Of a DNA stretch of 64,000 bases, positions 8,312-59,752 are shown one piece after another (position 1 is the first letter of the stretch; each line of letters begins with the position of its first letter). Where the stretch lies: the NCBI RefSeq assembly GCF_901765095.1, contig NW_021963017.1:110253-174252 (forward strand). The letters are read 5' to 3'. Under the pieces are notes generated by a model. The model searched no databases. It was not told where the DNA came from and saw only the letters and a list, made by a program, of their open reading frames with translations. Source of the DNA: Microcaecilia unicolor (Eukaryota). A program made the translations under genes and the position numbers.

Positions 8312-8444
8312 CTGAGAGTTTCCAATGCTTGCTCTCTCTCTTCACGAAGTTTTGCCAATGAGGCATTTTCTATCTTAAATCTTTCAATTTCCGTTTCTAA
8401 CTCAACCAACTTCTTCTTCAAAAGCTGGGACCGAAAAGTGTCTC
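8312..8444 (-). CDS. CENPJ: CENPJ coiled-coil exon (phase 1 in, phase 2 out): (G)[43 protein letters not shown](R).
   Basis: Acceptor gtgtgtttacag|GAGACAC and donor CTCTCAG|gtaactgatg. Phase fits the 1600-nt exon. Matches human [42 protein letters not shown]. Confidence 0.75.
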
Positions 8445-8499
8445 CTGTAAACACACCATAAAACTTTTAGTTATTCAACGTTCTGAAGAAAAGTATGAT

Positions 8500-8645
8500 C
8501 CACAATCCAGGAGAGTGTTTCCCAAGTCCAGGCCTGCCTCTATCATATCCAAATCTCTTTCATGAATATTCATTGTGGATATCCTGAAAACCTGACTGGC
8601 AAGCAGTACTCCAGGACCGGACTTGGGAAACGCTGATCTAGGAAA
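8500..8645. repeat. MITE copy (partial), same family as 5935-6135.
   Basis: Shares ...catgaatattcattgtggatatcctgaaaacctgactggcaag...gacttgggaaac. Confidence 0.55.
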
Positions 8646-8819
8646 AAAATACTCCAAAAAACAATGTATTTCTCTTTCAGCAATTAAAATAATCAAAACT
8701 AAAAATGCTAAAGCTTACACAGAAACAGAGAAGACAGCAGATAAAAGATTTCATGACCTATCCAGTCTGCCCATCCATACTATTTGCTATCCCTTCCTCT
8801 CCCTTAGAGATCCTATATC

Positions 8820-9010
8820 ATTGATTCCCAAACCAGTCCTAGGAGAACCCCAGCCAGTCAGGTTTTCTGGACAGCCACAATGAATATACATAAGAGAAAC
8901 CTGTATGCAGTGGAAGCACTGCATGCAAATTTCGCTCATGAATATTCATTGCAAATATCTTGAGAACCTGACTGGCTAGGATTCCATCAGGGCATGTTTG
9001 GGAGCCACTA
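8820..9010. repeat. MITE copy, same family.
   Basis: cagccagtcaggttttctggacagccacaatgaatatacat...catgaatattcattgcaaatatcttgagaacctgactggc. Confidence 0.55.
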
Positions 9011-9394
9011 TCCTACGTACTTGCCCCAAGCTTGCTTGAATTCAGATACAGTCTGTCTCCACCACCTCCACTGAGAAACTGTTCCACAAATTCACTACCC
9101 TTTCCATAAAGAAGTATTTCCTCAGGTTACTCCCTATTCCCTTTCACCTTCATCCTATGCCTTCTCATTCCAGAACTTCTTTTCCTCCTGTGCATTTATG
9201 CCATGGGGGCATTTAAATAGCTCTATCATAACTAAAAACTAACCTGTTTAAAAAGGCATATCCCACAGATCCAACTTAAATGCCTAATCTCTGCAACACA
9301 ACCAAACTACGGCACATAATGGACATAACACAACTCTTCTGTTCTCCGATTCCCTAATGTGGCTGTGCCACATGAACTTGATCTTACCACAACA

Positions 9395-55800: not shown

Positions 55801-56411
55801 TGGCAAGCTGTTATGAAAGCATTAGTAAAGCTAATTGGATCATCTTTGGTGTGCAGCCCTTTGGTGTGTCTCTTGGGCTTACACGAGAGGGAGTCTTGGG
55901 AACAGCGGAAATGGTTGCGCTGGGGGCTGGCAGCAGCTAAGTGCCTTACAGCACAGTATTGGAAGAGGGTAGATCCCCCGACATTGAGTGATTGGAAGTA
56001 TAAATTGGGTCAGTTAATACAAATGGAGAGATAAACGACTCACTGCAGGGAAAAGGAAGATGGGCTCGACTACAACAGCGATTGACAAGTATTTAGGTTA
56101 ATGGAATCTTATAGGAGGGGGGAGGGGGAGAGAGAGTGCCCCAAAGAACCATGGGGTGCTCTCAAGGGGAAGTGGGGCTGGTGATGGTTAGAATGAAGGG
56201 GAAGGGGATGATGTATTTTTGGAGTACAAGGTTTAGTTGGGCAGTGGTTGTTCATTTTGTTATTTGTTGCAGTGGGTTCAGTGATGAGCTGGTTTTAGAT
56301 GTAGTAGCGTAGTAGTTAAGTAATTATGAGCCCCTGCGTGGGCGAATGTAAGCGAGATGTGCTCTTGTTATGGAGTTATGCAAACTAAAAGTAAAAAAAA
56401 AAAAAAAGAAG
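52850..56411 (+). mobile_element. L1-clade LINE: ORF1 (52858-53600; RNNLRVIGLPESVQ; ...YPAKLRIWHAGKSV), ORF2 EN/RT (LAIDAEKAFDRVSW; LFADDVLLYV) and C-terminal Cys-rich domain (55394-56034), G-rich 3'UTR, A16 tail at 56396-56411.
   Basis: Track ORFs 53021-53227, 53386-53610, 54107-54583, 54751-55056, 55394-55792 and 55672-56034 are collinear on +. A poly(A) ends the element. Confidence 0.7.
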
Positions 56412-56419
56412 CCAGAGAG

Positions 56420-58650
56420 GATGCAGGGTGAATAAATTTTGGCTGTGTTGTTCAGGGAGGGGGGGTTGGATGGAAGTGCAACTTAAGAGGGAGGAGAGGG
56501 TACATAGGGGGGTAGAGATGGGGTAAGTATGAATGATATGCTTGAGTGGGAGAGAGAGAATGAACGGGGGGAACATGGGGTAGCTGAAGTGATTGCTATC
56601 GTAAGAAGGGAGGTGGGGGTGGGTAGCGCAGTCACATTGTTTTCTACTGGGGGTTGTTGGACCAGGGTTGAAAAGTCCAGCAGGCTCAGCTGGGAGATCG
56701 AGAGACATCAAAAACTCCCCTGGCTGTACCGCTGCGATCACCGAGCGGAGGGTTTCCATGCAGAAATGCCGAACCCGTAAGGACCTGTTGATGCACTTGA
56801 AGTCTAGGACGGGTCACCAAGAACCGCCCTTTTTTGGCACCACAAAATAAATGGCGTATCGACCGCACCCTCTTTCTGCTGGGGGGTACAGGCTGGACGG
56901 CTCCCAGTCGTTGTAAGTTGAGGAGGGTGTAACAAACTGCCCGCACCTTGGGGCGAGCAATTGCAACTTGTAGCCGTCTCTGATAACCCCCATCTGTCGG
57001 ATGTTACCCTGGTCCACTCCACCAGGAATAGGGACAGCCCCCAATAACCAGCTGGAGATAGACCAGGGCCCCATCATTGGGCGGACCTGGCTGCGGGCTG
57101 GTTTCTGTTACCGGAAAGGAAGGCCCGCCTGTCACCTCAAAAGGGCTGAGGTCTCTGAGAAGACCTTGCTCTTTGAAAAGAGGCCCCGCAACGTGGACGG
57201 TAATGACGTGTATCCCTAAACTTAGGTCTAGGTCCCGCCAGTCGCACAAATTTGGACCTGTCCTCCGGGAGGCGCTGGCCCTTAGAGTCACCGAGGTCCT
57301 TCACAATCTGTTCTAGGTCTGTTCCAAACAAAAGTGTTCCCCTAAAAGGAAGCCTTGAAAGCCGTGACTTAGAGGCCAGGTCTGCAGCCCAATGTCGCAA
57401 CCACAGCCAGCGACGCGCGGTGACTGCTAGGAAAACTTCCTTCACCGAAGCCCTCAAAAGATCATAAAAAAGATCCGCAAGGAAGGCTAAACCGGACTCT
57501 AAGGCCAGCAAAACAGCCACGAGGTCCTCCGGACAGGAGGCTTTCTGTACCCACGATAAGCACGCCCGCGCCGCATAGGAGCCACAAACTGAAGCTTGCA
57601 GGGAAAGGGCCTCTACTTCAAAAGGACAGCTTCAAGAAAATCTCCAACTTATGATCATGAGGGTCCTTGAGTGCCATGCCACCCTCCACAGGGACAGTGG
57701 TTTTCTTACTGACCGCTGTGATTAATTAATCCACCATAAGAACCTTCAGCAAGTCTAAGTCAGCAGCAAGCATCGCGTAAAGACATGACATAGCTCTAGC
57801 AACCTTAAGCCCACTGTCCGGCGCATCCCACTGCGCCGAAATAAGGATTTTCATGGCCTCATGCACATGAAAGGAACGAGGTGGGCATTTGGTGCCAGAC
57901 ATAATAGAGAGCACTGGACCTGTTCCCCCTGATGATTCAGGGGGTGAAATGGCCAAAACCTCAAAATCCCTAATAATCAGGGAGGGAAGCTCTTCCCTGC
58001 GAAAAAGGCAGGCAGCCATCGGGTCATCCCCCTCCTCAGAAGGCAGGGTGACCTCATCTGCCAAATCCAATGATTCTGAGGGACGGCCCGGAGACAAAAC
58101 CAGGCCATCTGTGTCAGATAGCTCCTCGGGATCCAAAATCTCCACCCGGGGACATTTTGGCAGGAAAGACTGAGAGGCTGCAGCAACCGAAGTTTGATGA
58201 AGAAGAGACGGGGCTGCCTGAAGAGAAGCTCCTGACTTCTTCAGAAGAAAGGCACTGTGCATTAATAAAACAAACTGAAAGGGACTCCCCTGCTTCCTCT
58301 AAATTGCTTTCCTCCATCAGAGCCTGTGCCACAGAAGCGCGCTGTGCCTCCTGTCTGTCAACAGCCACGTGCGGAGCTGGTCGCGCCTGAGAGGAAAAAA
58401 ATGGTGCCCGCCGACGCGAGCTGCATTAACTGCCCCGAGGAAACCGCTGAAACTATCCCCTGCACTTCCGACTCACCGGACGCTTAAGGGGAACCCCCGT
58501 CACACTGAACACCCACTGTGGGCTGACGGCGGCACGACTCACATTCCCCCGACGCTGCTCTCCAGCCCCCACACCGACAGCAGCGCTTAGCCACCTCAGA
58601 CGGCACTGAAACGCTCCACAAACGCCTGCCCCTCAAACAGACTCGGCAGC
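56420..58650 (-). mobile_element. DIRS-like fragment: gag-like ORFs (58262-57137) and RT N-terminus (57077-56420: YAIYFVVPKKGGSW / METLRSVIAAVQPGEFLMSLDL). Truncated by the 3' end of the adjacent L1.
   Basis: RT motifs 1-2/A of DIRS-type (VVPKK.GG..., ...MSLDL.DAY-like) on the minus strand, ending at the L1 poly(A) junction. Confidence 0.5.
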
Positions 58651-59251
58651 CCGTCTAGCTCCTCCATATGATTAAACAAAAACAAAGTCTCTTAAAAGAG
58701 ACGCTTACCTTTTTTTTTTTTTCACTCAGGAGAGAAAGGCAACACCCAATCAGGCCCACAGCCCCGGGCAACGGAGGAAAGGTAGGGGGAGACTGGGAGG
58801 GACCTGGCACCACCAGGTGTACACCAGAAGCTACAAACAGCCACTCAACCCCTGACTGTGCTGAACTAGGCCCAAAGGACACCAGTAGCCAGATCAAACC
58901 AGAGCTGCACAGAGATGTCCCTCCACCTGCTAGATAGAGAGAATACTGAGGTTTACTTCAGGTTTACTTGTCTGCACAGGTCCACATATAGCAAACCTCG
59001 GAGGTTCTCTCTATCTCCACCTGCTGGTAGAGGGACACAACCCACAAGACTCTGGATTGATCTGTGGGACGCTATGGAAAGTTAAACTTAATGATGAAAT
59101 AAGCAGCATGGCATTTATATCTGAAATTTTGTAAAAATATTTCCACTCATCCAAAAAAATAAATAAATATTCAACATTTCTATAAGGGGACAAGTGAAGT
59201 AATAGAAAACAACAGAAACAGAAGCCCAAAGTCACTGATTTTTTTTCTTAC

Positions 59252-59752
59252 CTGCTCTAGTTTTTGCAAAAGAGGATCATTATGAATTTCTTCTCCGGGA
59301 CTTCCTAAATCACCAGTCCTAATGTCTTCCCATTCAATTGGGGCATCTTTAAATATCATGGGTCCCTTCTTAGCCCAATGTGATGCTCTCAATGGGTTTA
59401 CTGTTTCCACTGTGTCACTTTCTTCATAAAAACAGTTAGCCTCTGAAATTTCTTCTTCATGAAGAGAGTCTTCATTTATAGAATTGCCACTGCCTGAGAT
59501 AAGAACGGATTTTATCTGGGAATTAACTGAGATGTTTCCACTTCTACACAGTGGGCTCTCGCTAATTGTTTCCAGAGCAGAAAAGGAAGGATTAAGTATA
59601 ACTCCAGCTCGCGAAGCGCTGGACATCCACTGTGTTATAAAGTTCTGTTCAATATTCAGATCTGAAGTGGTAGGCATTTTGAAAAATTTGGCTCCAGTCA
59701 GTTCTACCACATAAACGGCATGATTTGCAGCATTCCAATTGGCTTTACATGT
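59252..59752 (-). CDS. CENPJ: CENPJ first coding exon. Acceptor ...gatcagtag|ACATGT; 5'UTR 59752-59678 containing short uORFs; start ATG 59677-59675 (ttcaaaATGc); donor CTAGAGCAG|gtaaga after 59252. Encodes [32 protein letters not shown]...DPLLQKLEQ.
   Basis: Open frame from ATG to a canonical GTAAGA donor. N-terminus aligns with human [35 protein letters not shown] and the end with DPLFKKLEQ. The track ORF 59180-59710 begins at a GTG, not ATG. Confidence 0.75.

Follow-up and report, generated by a model that had tools for sequence, protein, structure and literature searches.

A predicted CENPJ locus with transposon-inflated introns in the caecilian amphibian Microcaecilia unicolor

Human CENPJ/CPAP (MCPH6/SCKL4) has 17 exons and encodes a protein of 1338 aa, for which microtubule capping, tubulin binding and STIL binding are established functions. 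TCP10-type proteins have only the C-terminal G-box in common with CENPJ. The whole human gene spans 40,672 bp (PMC3123551). In M. unicolor, the CENPJ locus considered here is already known and annotated (XP_030044429.1, a computational Gnomon prediction) and is an ordinary housekeeping gene in a genome rich in transposable elements (TE). The window, i.e., the whole 64,000 nt stretch of DNA analyzed, was judged from its sequence to carry the 5' two-thirds of this gene (CPAP/SAS-4), with TE-inflated introns, at a probability of about 0.95.

Gene identity and exon structure

Six coding exons on the minus strand are predicted to encode residues 1-843 of 1258. The spliced product of 843 aa agreed at every position (843/843) with the N-terminus of RefSeq XP_030044429.1, a 1258-aa protein titled "centromere protein J [Microcaecilia unicolor]", and within the shared part no difference was found from XP_030044429.1 or XP_030044430.1 (together P0190). 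The remainder, residues 844-1258 with coiled coils and the G-box, is encoded by DNA beyond the window. Exon equivalents below follow the human CENPJ exon numbering.

59678..59774, minus strand: putative 5'UTR part of the ATG exon, following the acceptor tttatttctttag/GTACTC
59677..59675, minus strand: ATG of coding exon 1, with A at -3
59252..59677, minus strand: coding exon 1 (human exon 2 equivalent), 426 nt, 142 codons, ending in phase 0, donor CAG/gtaaga; residues 1-142 identical to XP_030044429.1
49898..50021, minus strand: coding exon 2 (human exon 3 equivalent), 124 nt, phase 0 to 1, encoding a coiled coil
35625..35766, minus strand: coding exon 3 (human exon 5 equivalent), 142 nt, phase 1 to 2
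30970..31075, minus strand: coding exon 4 (human exon 6 equivalent), 106 nt, phase 2 to 0, LID part of PN2-3 (KQTFEEFLDEQ)
11531..13130, minus strand: coding exon 5 (human exon 7 equivalent), 1600 nt, phase 0 to 1
8312..8444, minus strand: coding exon 6 (human exon 8 equivalent), 133 nt, phase 1 to 2, encoding a coiled coil

All ten internal splice sites were AG/GT, phases were compatible across the six coding exons, and the predicted coding sequence (2,531 nt) contained zero stops or frameshifts. Coding exon 3 encodes GENSICDEP...AHTEE(R), with the PN2-3 domain starting at the exon end, and showed weak homology to an Ascaphus exon (tblastn, E=0.018). Coding exon 5, with edges ttag/ to /gtaaaa, encodes the SAC tubulin-binding motif KRPFLKRGAGLARFT at its start, plus a conserved 24-residue block. 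Residues 1-843 comprise, in order, the N-terminal region, then a short coiled coil followed by the PN2-3 tubulin-binding domain, a long and poorly conserved central region and the start of the C-terminal coiled coil.

Coding exon 5 matched CENPJ proteins at E=1e-83, and all 533 aa of its product aligned at 99% identity with a caecilian CENPJ model (1130 bits, reported E-value 0). Every named database match was CENPJ, and an exhaustive HMMER ranking placed caecilian (99%) before frog (46%), salamander (44%) and then amniotes, the top non-caecilian matches being Ascaphus (46%) and Pleurodeles (44%). Since all named matches are CENPJ, in a taxonomically sensible order, the exon is assigned to a CENPJ orthologue. 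At the sequence level, the match of the window exons to CENPJ is far beyond chance; a chance-ORF reading was rejected, with E-values reaching 1e-83 and below and with introns and PN2-3 present. A word-index search for homologs of the N-terminal 183 aa was uninformative, returning one weak match only (Crotalus CENPJ, E=2e-4), and nothing was detected by Rfam and tRNA scans over the whole window.

Much of a preliminary description made from the sequence alone was upheld by these results. Its assignment to CENPJ/CPAP on the minus strand agrees with the full RefSeq identity and the CENPJ-only named matches, with no different gene among those of the 1600-nt exon, which lies exactly at 13130..11531. 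The canonical splice sites and consistent phases it reported were recovered, both peptides it quoted were located on the minus strand (the 18-residue one in ORF 59180..59710, the 30-residue one in ORF 11520..13106), and its human comparison strings were matched by gorilla (P0022, 30-residue) and bat (P0126, 18-residue) proteins. Its exon count (seven plus one weak candidate, or "first 8 exons") did not hold, as six coding exons reproduce the RefSeq protein at 843/843; the ortholog tblastn that it proposed returned the known CENPJ exons, and neither tblastn nor a phase-constrained splice-site scan found a seventh or eighth coding exon.

The bounds given there, 8312 and 59752, fared differently at each end. 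Position 8312 coincides exactly with the final base of the last CENPJ exon in the window (donor /gtaact), while 59752 is the first base past an in-frame TAG (59755..59753) rather than a demonstrated exon edge. The putative 5'UTR also holds an ATG-TAA mini-uORF at 59750..59745. With simple weight matrices, the acceptor at 59775/59774 scored 8.7 versus -0.8 for the alternative at 59752, and, this acceptor being much stronger, the ATG exon probably begins at 59774. The true acceptors of coding exons 2-6 scored only -2.9 to 4.6 with the same matrices, which are thus non-discriminating in this AT-rich gene. No CpG island was found in 59775..64000, so that the promoter appears absent from the window, as had been proposed.

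Tubulin-binding region and G-box

The CPAP tubulin-binding region (Pfam PF25779) was recognized in the spliced product at residues 228-291 with 85.6 bits (cut-off 22). Coding exon 5 alone reached 18.6 bits, the threshold being passed only by the spliced product, so that the domain is reconstituted across three exons. The spliced product also matched PDB chain 5itz_D, the solved human CPAP PN2-3 (E=1.3e-22).

The LID motif lies in the exon at 31075..30970, and the SAC motif opens the 1.6 kb exon. The SAC motif reads PFLKRGAGLARF in the window and PFLKRGEGLARF in human; all five contact residues (F375, L376, K377, R378 and F385, human numbering) were identical in the window product (5/5). The LID reads TFEEFL versus human TFEDYL, with F338 and E339 identical and Y341 conservatively replaced by F. 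The roles of these SAC and LID residues in human CPAP are taken from PMC4884677. By analogy with the human protein, LID and SAC may bind the tubulin dimer and so allow slow, processive centriole elongation, the CENPJ protein would cap the plus ends of centriolar microtubules, and its C-terminal G-box, outside the window, would bind STIL.

The G-box/TCP domain (PF07202, Tcp10_C) was detected in P0190 with 142.8 bits (cut-off 36), and lies outside the window. A search of 1..8311 for peptide 5-mers from the following CENPJ exon found none, in line with the earlier placement of the 3' G-box exons outside the window. As this next exon lies outside, intron 6 must exceed 8.3 kb.

Introns and transposable elements

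The coding sequence made up 4.9% of the in-window gene span (51.4 kb). At 51,366 bp versus 40,672 bp (PMC3123551), this part alone is larger than the whole human gene, as the preliminary description had stated. Intron lengths ranged from 3.1 to 17.8 kb, and the following features were located in them.

50022..59251, minus strand: intron 1, 9,230 nt
54107..54583, plus strand: LINE reverse transcriptase (RT) ORF in intron 1 (PF00078, E=8.6e-20)
52410..53235 and 57137..58262: unclassified CpG-rich repeat ORFs in intron 1
35767..49897, minus strand: intron 2, 14,131 nt
40685..41812, minus strand: Pif1-helicase (Helitron-like) ORF in intron 2 (PF05970, 1.2e-20; PF21530, 6.5e-15)
42792..43196, plus strand: RT fragment in intron 2 (PF00078, 4.7e-07)
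45369..46707, minus strand: YLDD-motif retroelement ORF in intron 2, putative DIRS-like (motif read by eye)
31076..35624, minus strand: intron 3, 4,549 nt
34486..35007 and 33304..34140, minus strand: RT ORFs in intron 3 (PF00078, 28-29 bits, just below the 29.6 cut-off)
32303..33307, minus strand: GIY-YIG-like ORF in intron 3, after the RT ORFs (motif CYIGET.. by eye only)
13131..30969, minus strand: intron 4, 17,839 nt
23896..24420 (endonuclease) and 21654..22610 (RT), minus strand: L1-like LINE in intron 4 (PF03372, 1.6e-08; PF00078, 2.3e-19)
30643..30828: tandem repeat in intron 4
8445..11530, minus strand: intron 5, 3,086 nt, with short dispersed repeats
1..8311, minus strand: start of intron 6 (in-window part)
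883..1863 (endonuclease) and RT fragments up to 3516, plus strand: LINE in intron 6 (PF03372/PF14529, PF00078)

AP-endonuclease and RT ORFs identified LINEs at 883..1863(+), 21654..24420(-) and 54107..54583(+). Helitrons are marked by a Pif1-family helicase fused to a Rep endonuclease; the Helitron-like ORF displayed the Pif1 helicase and its 2B domain. Penelope elements combine RT with a GIY-YIG endonuclease, and DIRS elements RT/RNase H with a tyrosine recombinase. The arrangement in intron 3 is Penelope-like, a class label that comes from a motif read by eye; neither this GIY-YIG-like ORF nor the YLDD-motif ORF of intron 2 had a Pfam or PDB match. Among the dispersed repeats, 8812..8980 matched 10715..10882 and 9231..9503 was 87% identical to 34093..34364, while the repeat at 3879..5452 in intron 6 is a copy of that at 46954..47791.

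The LINE endonuclease/RT, Pif1-helicase and other retroelement ORFs bear out the TE-filled introns described earlier, and the TE-expanded genome then invoked fits published figures for M. unicolor (4.7 Gb, 69.3% repeats, with LINEs commonest and DIRS second; PMC10195157). Insertions of LINE, Helitron-like and other retroelements have inflated the CENPJ introns, as is typical for a genome of 4.7 Gb and 69% repeats.

Alternative readings and comparison with other CENPJ genes

Two M. unicolor CENPJ models share one 90% cluster; the first lies on a sequence of 376 Mb, the second on one of 366,252 bp. The chromosomal model, XP_030058251.1 (P0122, "centromere protein J-like"), was identical to the window product at 840/843 residues, differing by three substitutions (M437T, H522Q and L715Q), and to P0190 at 1077/1080 over the shared part (99.7%). 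In this model the G-box is missing and the C-terminus runs into LINE RT-like sequence. Given a second near-identical model on a chromosome-scale sequence, the scaffold may hold the functional locus, but it may also be a haplotype left uncollapsed or a duplicate of recent origin. That the window represents a haplotig or very recent segmental duplicate of chromosomal CENPJ, on a 366 kb unplaced scaffold, and not the functional locus, is a serious contender that we nevertheless consider somewhat unlikely: the shared cluster and the near identity of the models speak for it, as does a window that is exact to the small-scaffold copy and three residues off the chromosomal one, but the scaffold copy is the complete one (Tcp10_C, 142.8 bits), whereas the chromosomal one has no G-box and finishes in RT-like sequence. 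The chromosome may therefore be misassembled in this region and the scaffold correct, and the encoded product of the window would be unchanged in any case. A CENPJ-derived pseudogene, or another gene of the G-box family such as TCP10/TCP10L, is highly improbable. Nothing was found in its favour beyond the "CENPJ-like" RefSeq name of the chromosomal copy, while the 2,531 nt are free of stops and frameshifts, the tubulin-contact residues are conserved and the CPAP-specific N-terminal PN2-3 region is encoded. The introns are retained, so this is not a processed copy; with introns and PN2-3 present, the TCP10-type paralog and the processed pseudogene were rejected as effectively refuted.

The CENPJ reading leaves one part of the gene to be accounted for. 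Of the expected layout (ATG exon, coiled-coil exon, exons 4-6, 1.6 kb exon and next coiled-coil exon), 6/7 coding exons were present with matching contents, and the human exon 4 equivalent was not found. An exon homologous to it may lie in the window, too diverged for detection and skipped in the RefSeq model. From the exon-3 coiled coil to ERPI, most vertebrate orthologs have 150-200 aa versus 91 aa in the M. unicolor model, one weak candidate exon had been listed earlier, and an exon 4 of the expected phase (1 to 1) would leave the frame intact whether included or skipped. Against this, sensitive tblastn with 15 database orthologs gave only known exons and no exon 4 homolog in the 14.1 kb intron 2, as had an earlier tblastn of the exon 4/5 region with Balearica and human queries (the human one used as a lead only). 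When intron 2 was scanned for phase-compatible open AG...GT segments, ten candidates emerged, all in TE ORFs or random-looking and implausible, and an equally short linker (92 aa) occurs in the platypus X1 model. A hidden exon 4 is thus improbable, and the gap may reflect either a true feature of the lineage or an exon diverged past recognition. We are similarly doubtful that there are two real CENPJ loci (the complete one here and a chromosomal one with an exonised LINE fragment in place of the G-box) and/or a caecilian loss of the exon-4 linker; if true, either would mean lineage-specific remodelling of a core centriole gene, not an assembly or annotation artefact.

Correctly predicted and already in the catalogues as an orthologue of a well-studied centriole/microcephaly gene, the locus matters little beyond annotation, and its size is a simple illustration of transposon-driven intron inflation in a large amphibian genome. 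Two by-products are mildly useful. One is a warning that two CENPJ models in the assembly are nearly identical, with a TE-derived C-terminus in one of them; the other is that M. unicolor CENPJ apparently lacks the exon-4 linker.

Compared with human CENPJ, the domain order is the same, LID and SAC motifs are conserved, and both genes have one large central exon of about 1.6 kb and a conserved 14-residue block. Over the large exon, identity to the human type was about 35%, as measured against gorilla. The two genes also differ in the undetected exon-4 equivalent and in the introns, several-fold longer in M. unicolor, where 67% of the coding sequence already spans 51.4 kb. The best non-caecilian matches of the large exon, at 39-46% identity, were Ascaphus truei XP_075448426.1, Pleurodeles waltl XP_069058399.1 and Xenopus laevis XP_041438626.1. 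These three amphibian proteins share the architecture, including the GEN..C..HTEERPI exon, but are longer by about 85-110 residues in the stretch from the exon-3 coiled coil to that exon.

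Identity and exon structure of the gene

The preliminary description had assigned a minus-strand gene to CENPJ/CPAP, and this identification is correct. Both peptides it quoted were found on the minus strand, in the ORF at 59180..59710 and in a large ORF of 528 aa at 11520..13106. Named database matches of the large ORF were to CENPJ (best E = 1e-83); every match with a source name in the homolog search was 'centromere protein J / CENPJ / CPAP', except for one 'hypothetical protein' carrying the UniRef label of a CENPJ tubulin-binding-region protein. In this search, bird proteins were 38-46% identical and the gorilla protein 35%. 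The large ORF also matched the solved human CPAP chains 5itz_D, 5eib_F and 7q1f_P (PN2-3, the tubulin-binding domain) at the motif KRPFLKRGAGLARFT, and five collinear minus-strand blocks emerged when bird and gorilla CENPJ were compared by tblastn with the whole window, a variant of the check proposed at the outset.

The word-index homolog search, which taken alone would suggest a CENPJ exon without any close relative, missed caecilian proteins of 99-100% identity that were recovered by an exhaustive HMMER search. Among these, P0122 was 99% identical to the human exon 7 equivalent across all 533 residues. Cluster look-up identified P0122 as XP_030058251.1 ('centromere protein J-like', Microcaecilia unicolor, from a 376 Mb sequence), and its cluster mate P0190 as XP_030044429.1/XP_030044430.1 ('centromere protein J', from a 366,252 bp sequence).

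Exon boundaries were taken directly from the window sequence and delimited six coding exons, which we take to be the equivalents of human exons 2, 3, 5, 6, 7 and 8.

Coding exons of CENPJ in the window
59677..59252, minus strand, coding exon 1, 426 nt
50021..49898, minus strand, coding exon 2, 124 nt
35766..35625, minus strand, coding exon 3, 142 nt
31075..30970, minus strand, coding exon 4, 106 nt
13130..11531, minus strand, coding exon 5, 1600 nt
8444..8312, minus strand, coding exon 6, 133 nt

AG/GT sites were present in all six, with compatible phases (0-0, 0-1, 1-2, 2-0, 0-1 and 1-2), and introns 1 to 5 measured 9,230, 14,131, 4,549, 17,839 and 3,086 nt. Coding exon 3, missed by distant homology, was exposed by mapping P0122 onto the window. 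The spliced product (843 aa) was identical to P0190 at 843/843 residues and to P0122 at 840/843, which places the window on the 366 kb M. unicolor scaffold, at its CENPJ locus. The six-exon model, in full agreement with P0190, does not support the earlier count of eight first exons (seven plus one weak candidate). The gene is ordinary and already annotated.

Gene span, intronic transposons and gene ends

Coding sequence made up 2,531 nt (4.9%) of a 51,366 bp span, which by itself exceeds the entire human gene (17 exons, 40,672 bp; PMC3123551), in agreement with the preliminary description. ORFs of transposable elements (TEs) were found at the following positions.

Transposable-element ORFs in the window
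883..1863, plus strand, LINE endonuclease (Pfam)
1698..2330, plus strand, weak reverse transcriptase (RT) fragment in an ORF overlapping the LINE endonuclease (PF00078, 15.8 bits, below cut-off)
21654..24420, minus strand, L1-like endonuclease and RT (Pfam)
32303..34140, minus strand, Penelope-like ORFs (motifs by eye; class without Pfam/PDB confirmation)
34486..35007, minus strand, RT (Pfam, just below cut-off)
40685..41812, minus strand, Pif1 helicase with 2B domain, Helitron-like (Pfam)
42792..43196, plus strand, RT (Pfam)
45369..46707, minus strand, DIRS-like ORFs (motifs by eye; class without Pfam/PDB confirmation)
54107..54583, plus strand, RT (Pfam)

ORFs neighbouring the weak RT fragment, up to 3516, gave no Pfam matches. 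Several dispersed repeats were present in more than one copy inside the window, which, like the earlier proposal of a TE-expanded genome, fits the published 69.3% repeat content of the 4.7 Gb M. unicolor genome, in which LINEs are most abundant and DIRS elements next (PMC10195157). Exons were more AT-rich (37.8% GC) than the TE-filled introns (43.9%), and all CpG-rich patches of the window coincided with TE ORFs, none with the 5' end of the gene.

The four longest intronic TE ORF clusters (21654..24420, 32303..34140, 40685..41812 and 45369..46707) all lay on the gene's strand, a sample (n=4) too small to call an orientation bias. A CpG-rich repeat occurred in two copies (3879..5452 and 46954..47791; 79-88% identity), matching partly in direct and partly in inverted orientation. 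Each copy contains an ORF of similar sequence (CLRMKKRTQ.S.EAQ.EK.FGAQSGPSTSTLVPR), for which Pfam gave no match, and the repeat may belong to a DIRS-like element. An imperfect, AGATTAGAAAG-like tandem repeat with periods of 25 and 40 (30643..30828) started in intron 4, some 140 nt downstream of the 31075..30970 donor, and intron 2 contained a perfect 28-bp tandem duplication of 2.2 copies (48672..48733).

No peptide 5-mer of the next exon (starting KEVADFEQQK...) was matched in 1..8311, so intron 6 is longer than 8.3 kb and the exons of the G-box lie beyond the window, as described before. The G-box, the C-terminal Tcp10_C domain through which CPAP binds STIL, was found in P0190 (142.8 bits). 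Upstream of the ATG exon, no CpG island was detected in 59775..64000 (CpG observed/expected 0.36 or less), consistent with a promoter, and a non-coding exon 1 if there is one, located outside the window. The former gene edge, 59752, is doubtful: it is the first base past an in-frame TAG (59755..59753), and splice-site scoring rated the acceptor 59775|59774 much stronger than the alternative at 59752, which makes 59774 the probable 5' edge of the ATG exon. A minimal ATG-TAA uORF was observed in the putative 5'UTR at 59750..59745 on the minus strand; the CENPJ start codon follows 68 nt downstream.

Two CENPJ models and the search for an equivalent of human exon 4

The two M. unicolor models were identical at 1077/1080 residues (99.7%). 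The chromosomal model XP_030058251.1 departs from P0190 after ...EEINYADGK and ends in LINE reverse transcriptase-like sequence (AEKAFDKVVWHYLFWVLQRFG) in place of the G-box; window ORFs related to this tail were found at 22485..22601 (minus strand) and 54077..54211 (plus strand). A real duplication, with the G-box of one copy replaced by LINE-derived sequence, seems unlikely, and the pair probably reflects a haplotig, misassembly or mis-annotation.

The distance from the exon-3 coiled coil to the ERPI motif was 91 residues in the caecilian, compared with 150-200 in most vertebrate orthologs, while the platypus X1 model is about as short (92 residues). No human exon 4 homolog was found in intron 2 (35767..49897) by tblastn with human and crane sequences, and none that was credible with 15 database orthologs. 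A phase-constrained AG...GT scan of the same intron yielded ten candidates, all within TE ORFs or random-looking. Lineage-specific loss of the exon-4 linker is possible; an uncollapsed haplotype or misassembly, with annotation noise, is more likely than either this loss or a real duplication.

Tubulin-binding domain compared with human CPAP

The CPAP tubulin-binding model of Pfam (PF25779, cut-off 22 bits) scored 18.6 bits on the human exon 7 equivalent alone but 85.6 bits on the spliced product, over a stretch crossing three exons (residues 228-291), providing independent support for the splicing. This stretch aligned with human CPAP PN2-3 (5itz_D, E=1.3e-22). CPAP binds tubulin dimers via its LID and SAC motifs and caps the plus ends of centriolar microtubules, resulting in slow, processive growth (PMC4884677); by orthology, caecilian CENPJ would be expected to function likewise. 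Among the residues whose roles were described by Sharma et al. 2016 (PMC4884677), the SAC contacts F375, L376, K377, R378 and F385 of human CPAP were all identical in the 5itz_D alignment (5/5), and the LID residues F338, E339 and Y341 corresponded to F, E and F in the caecilian.
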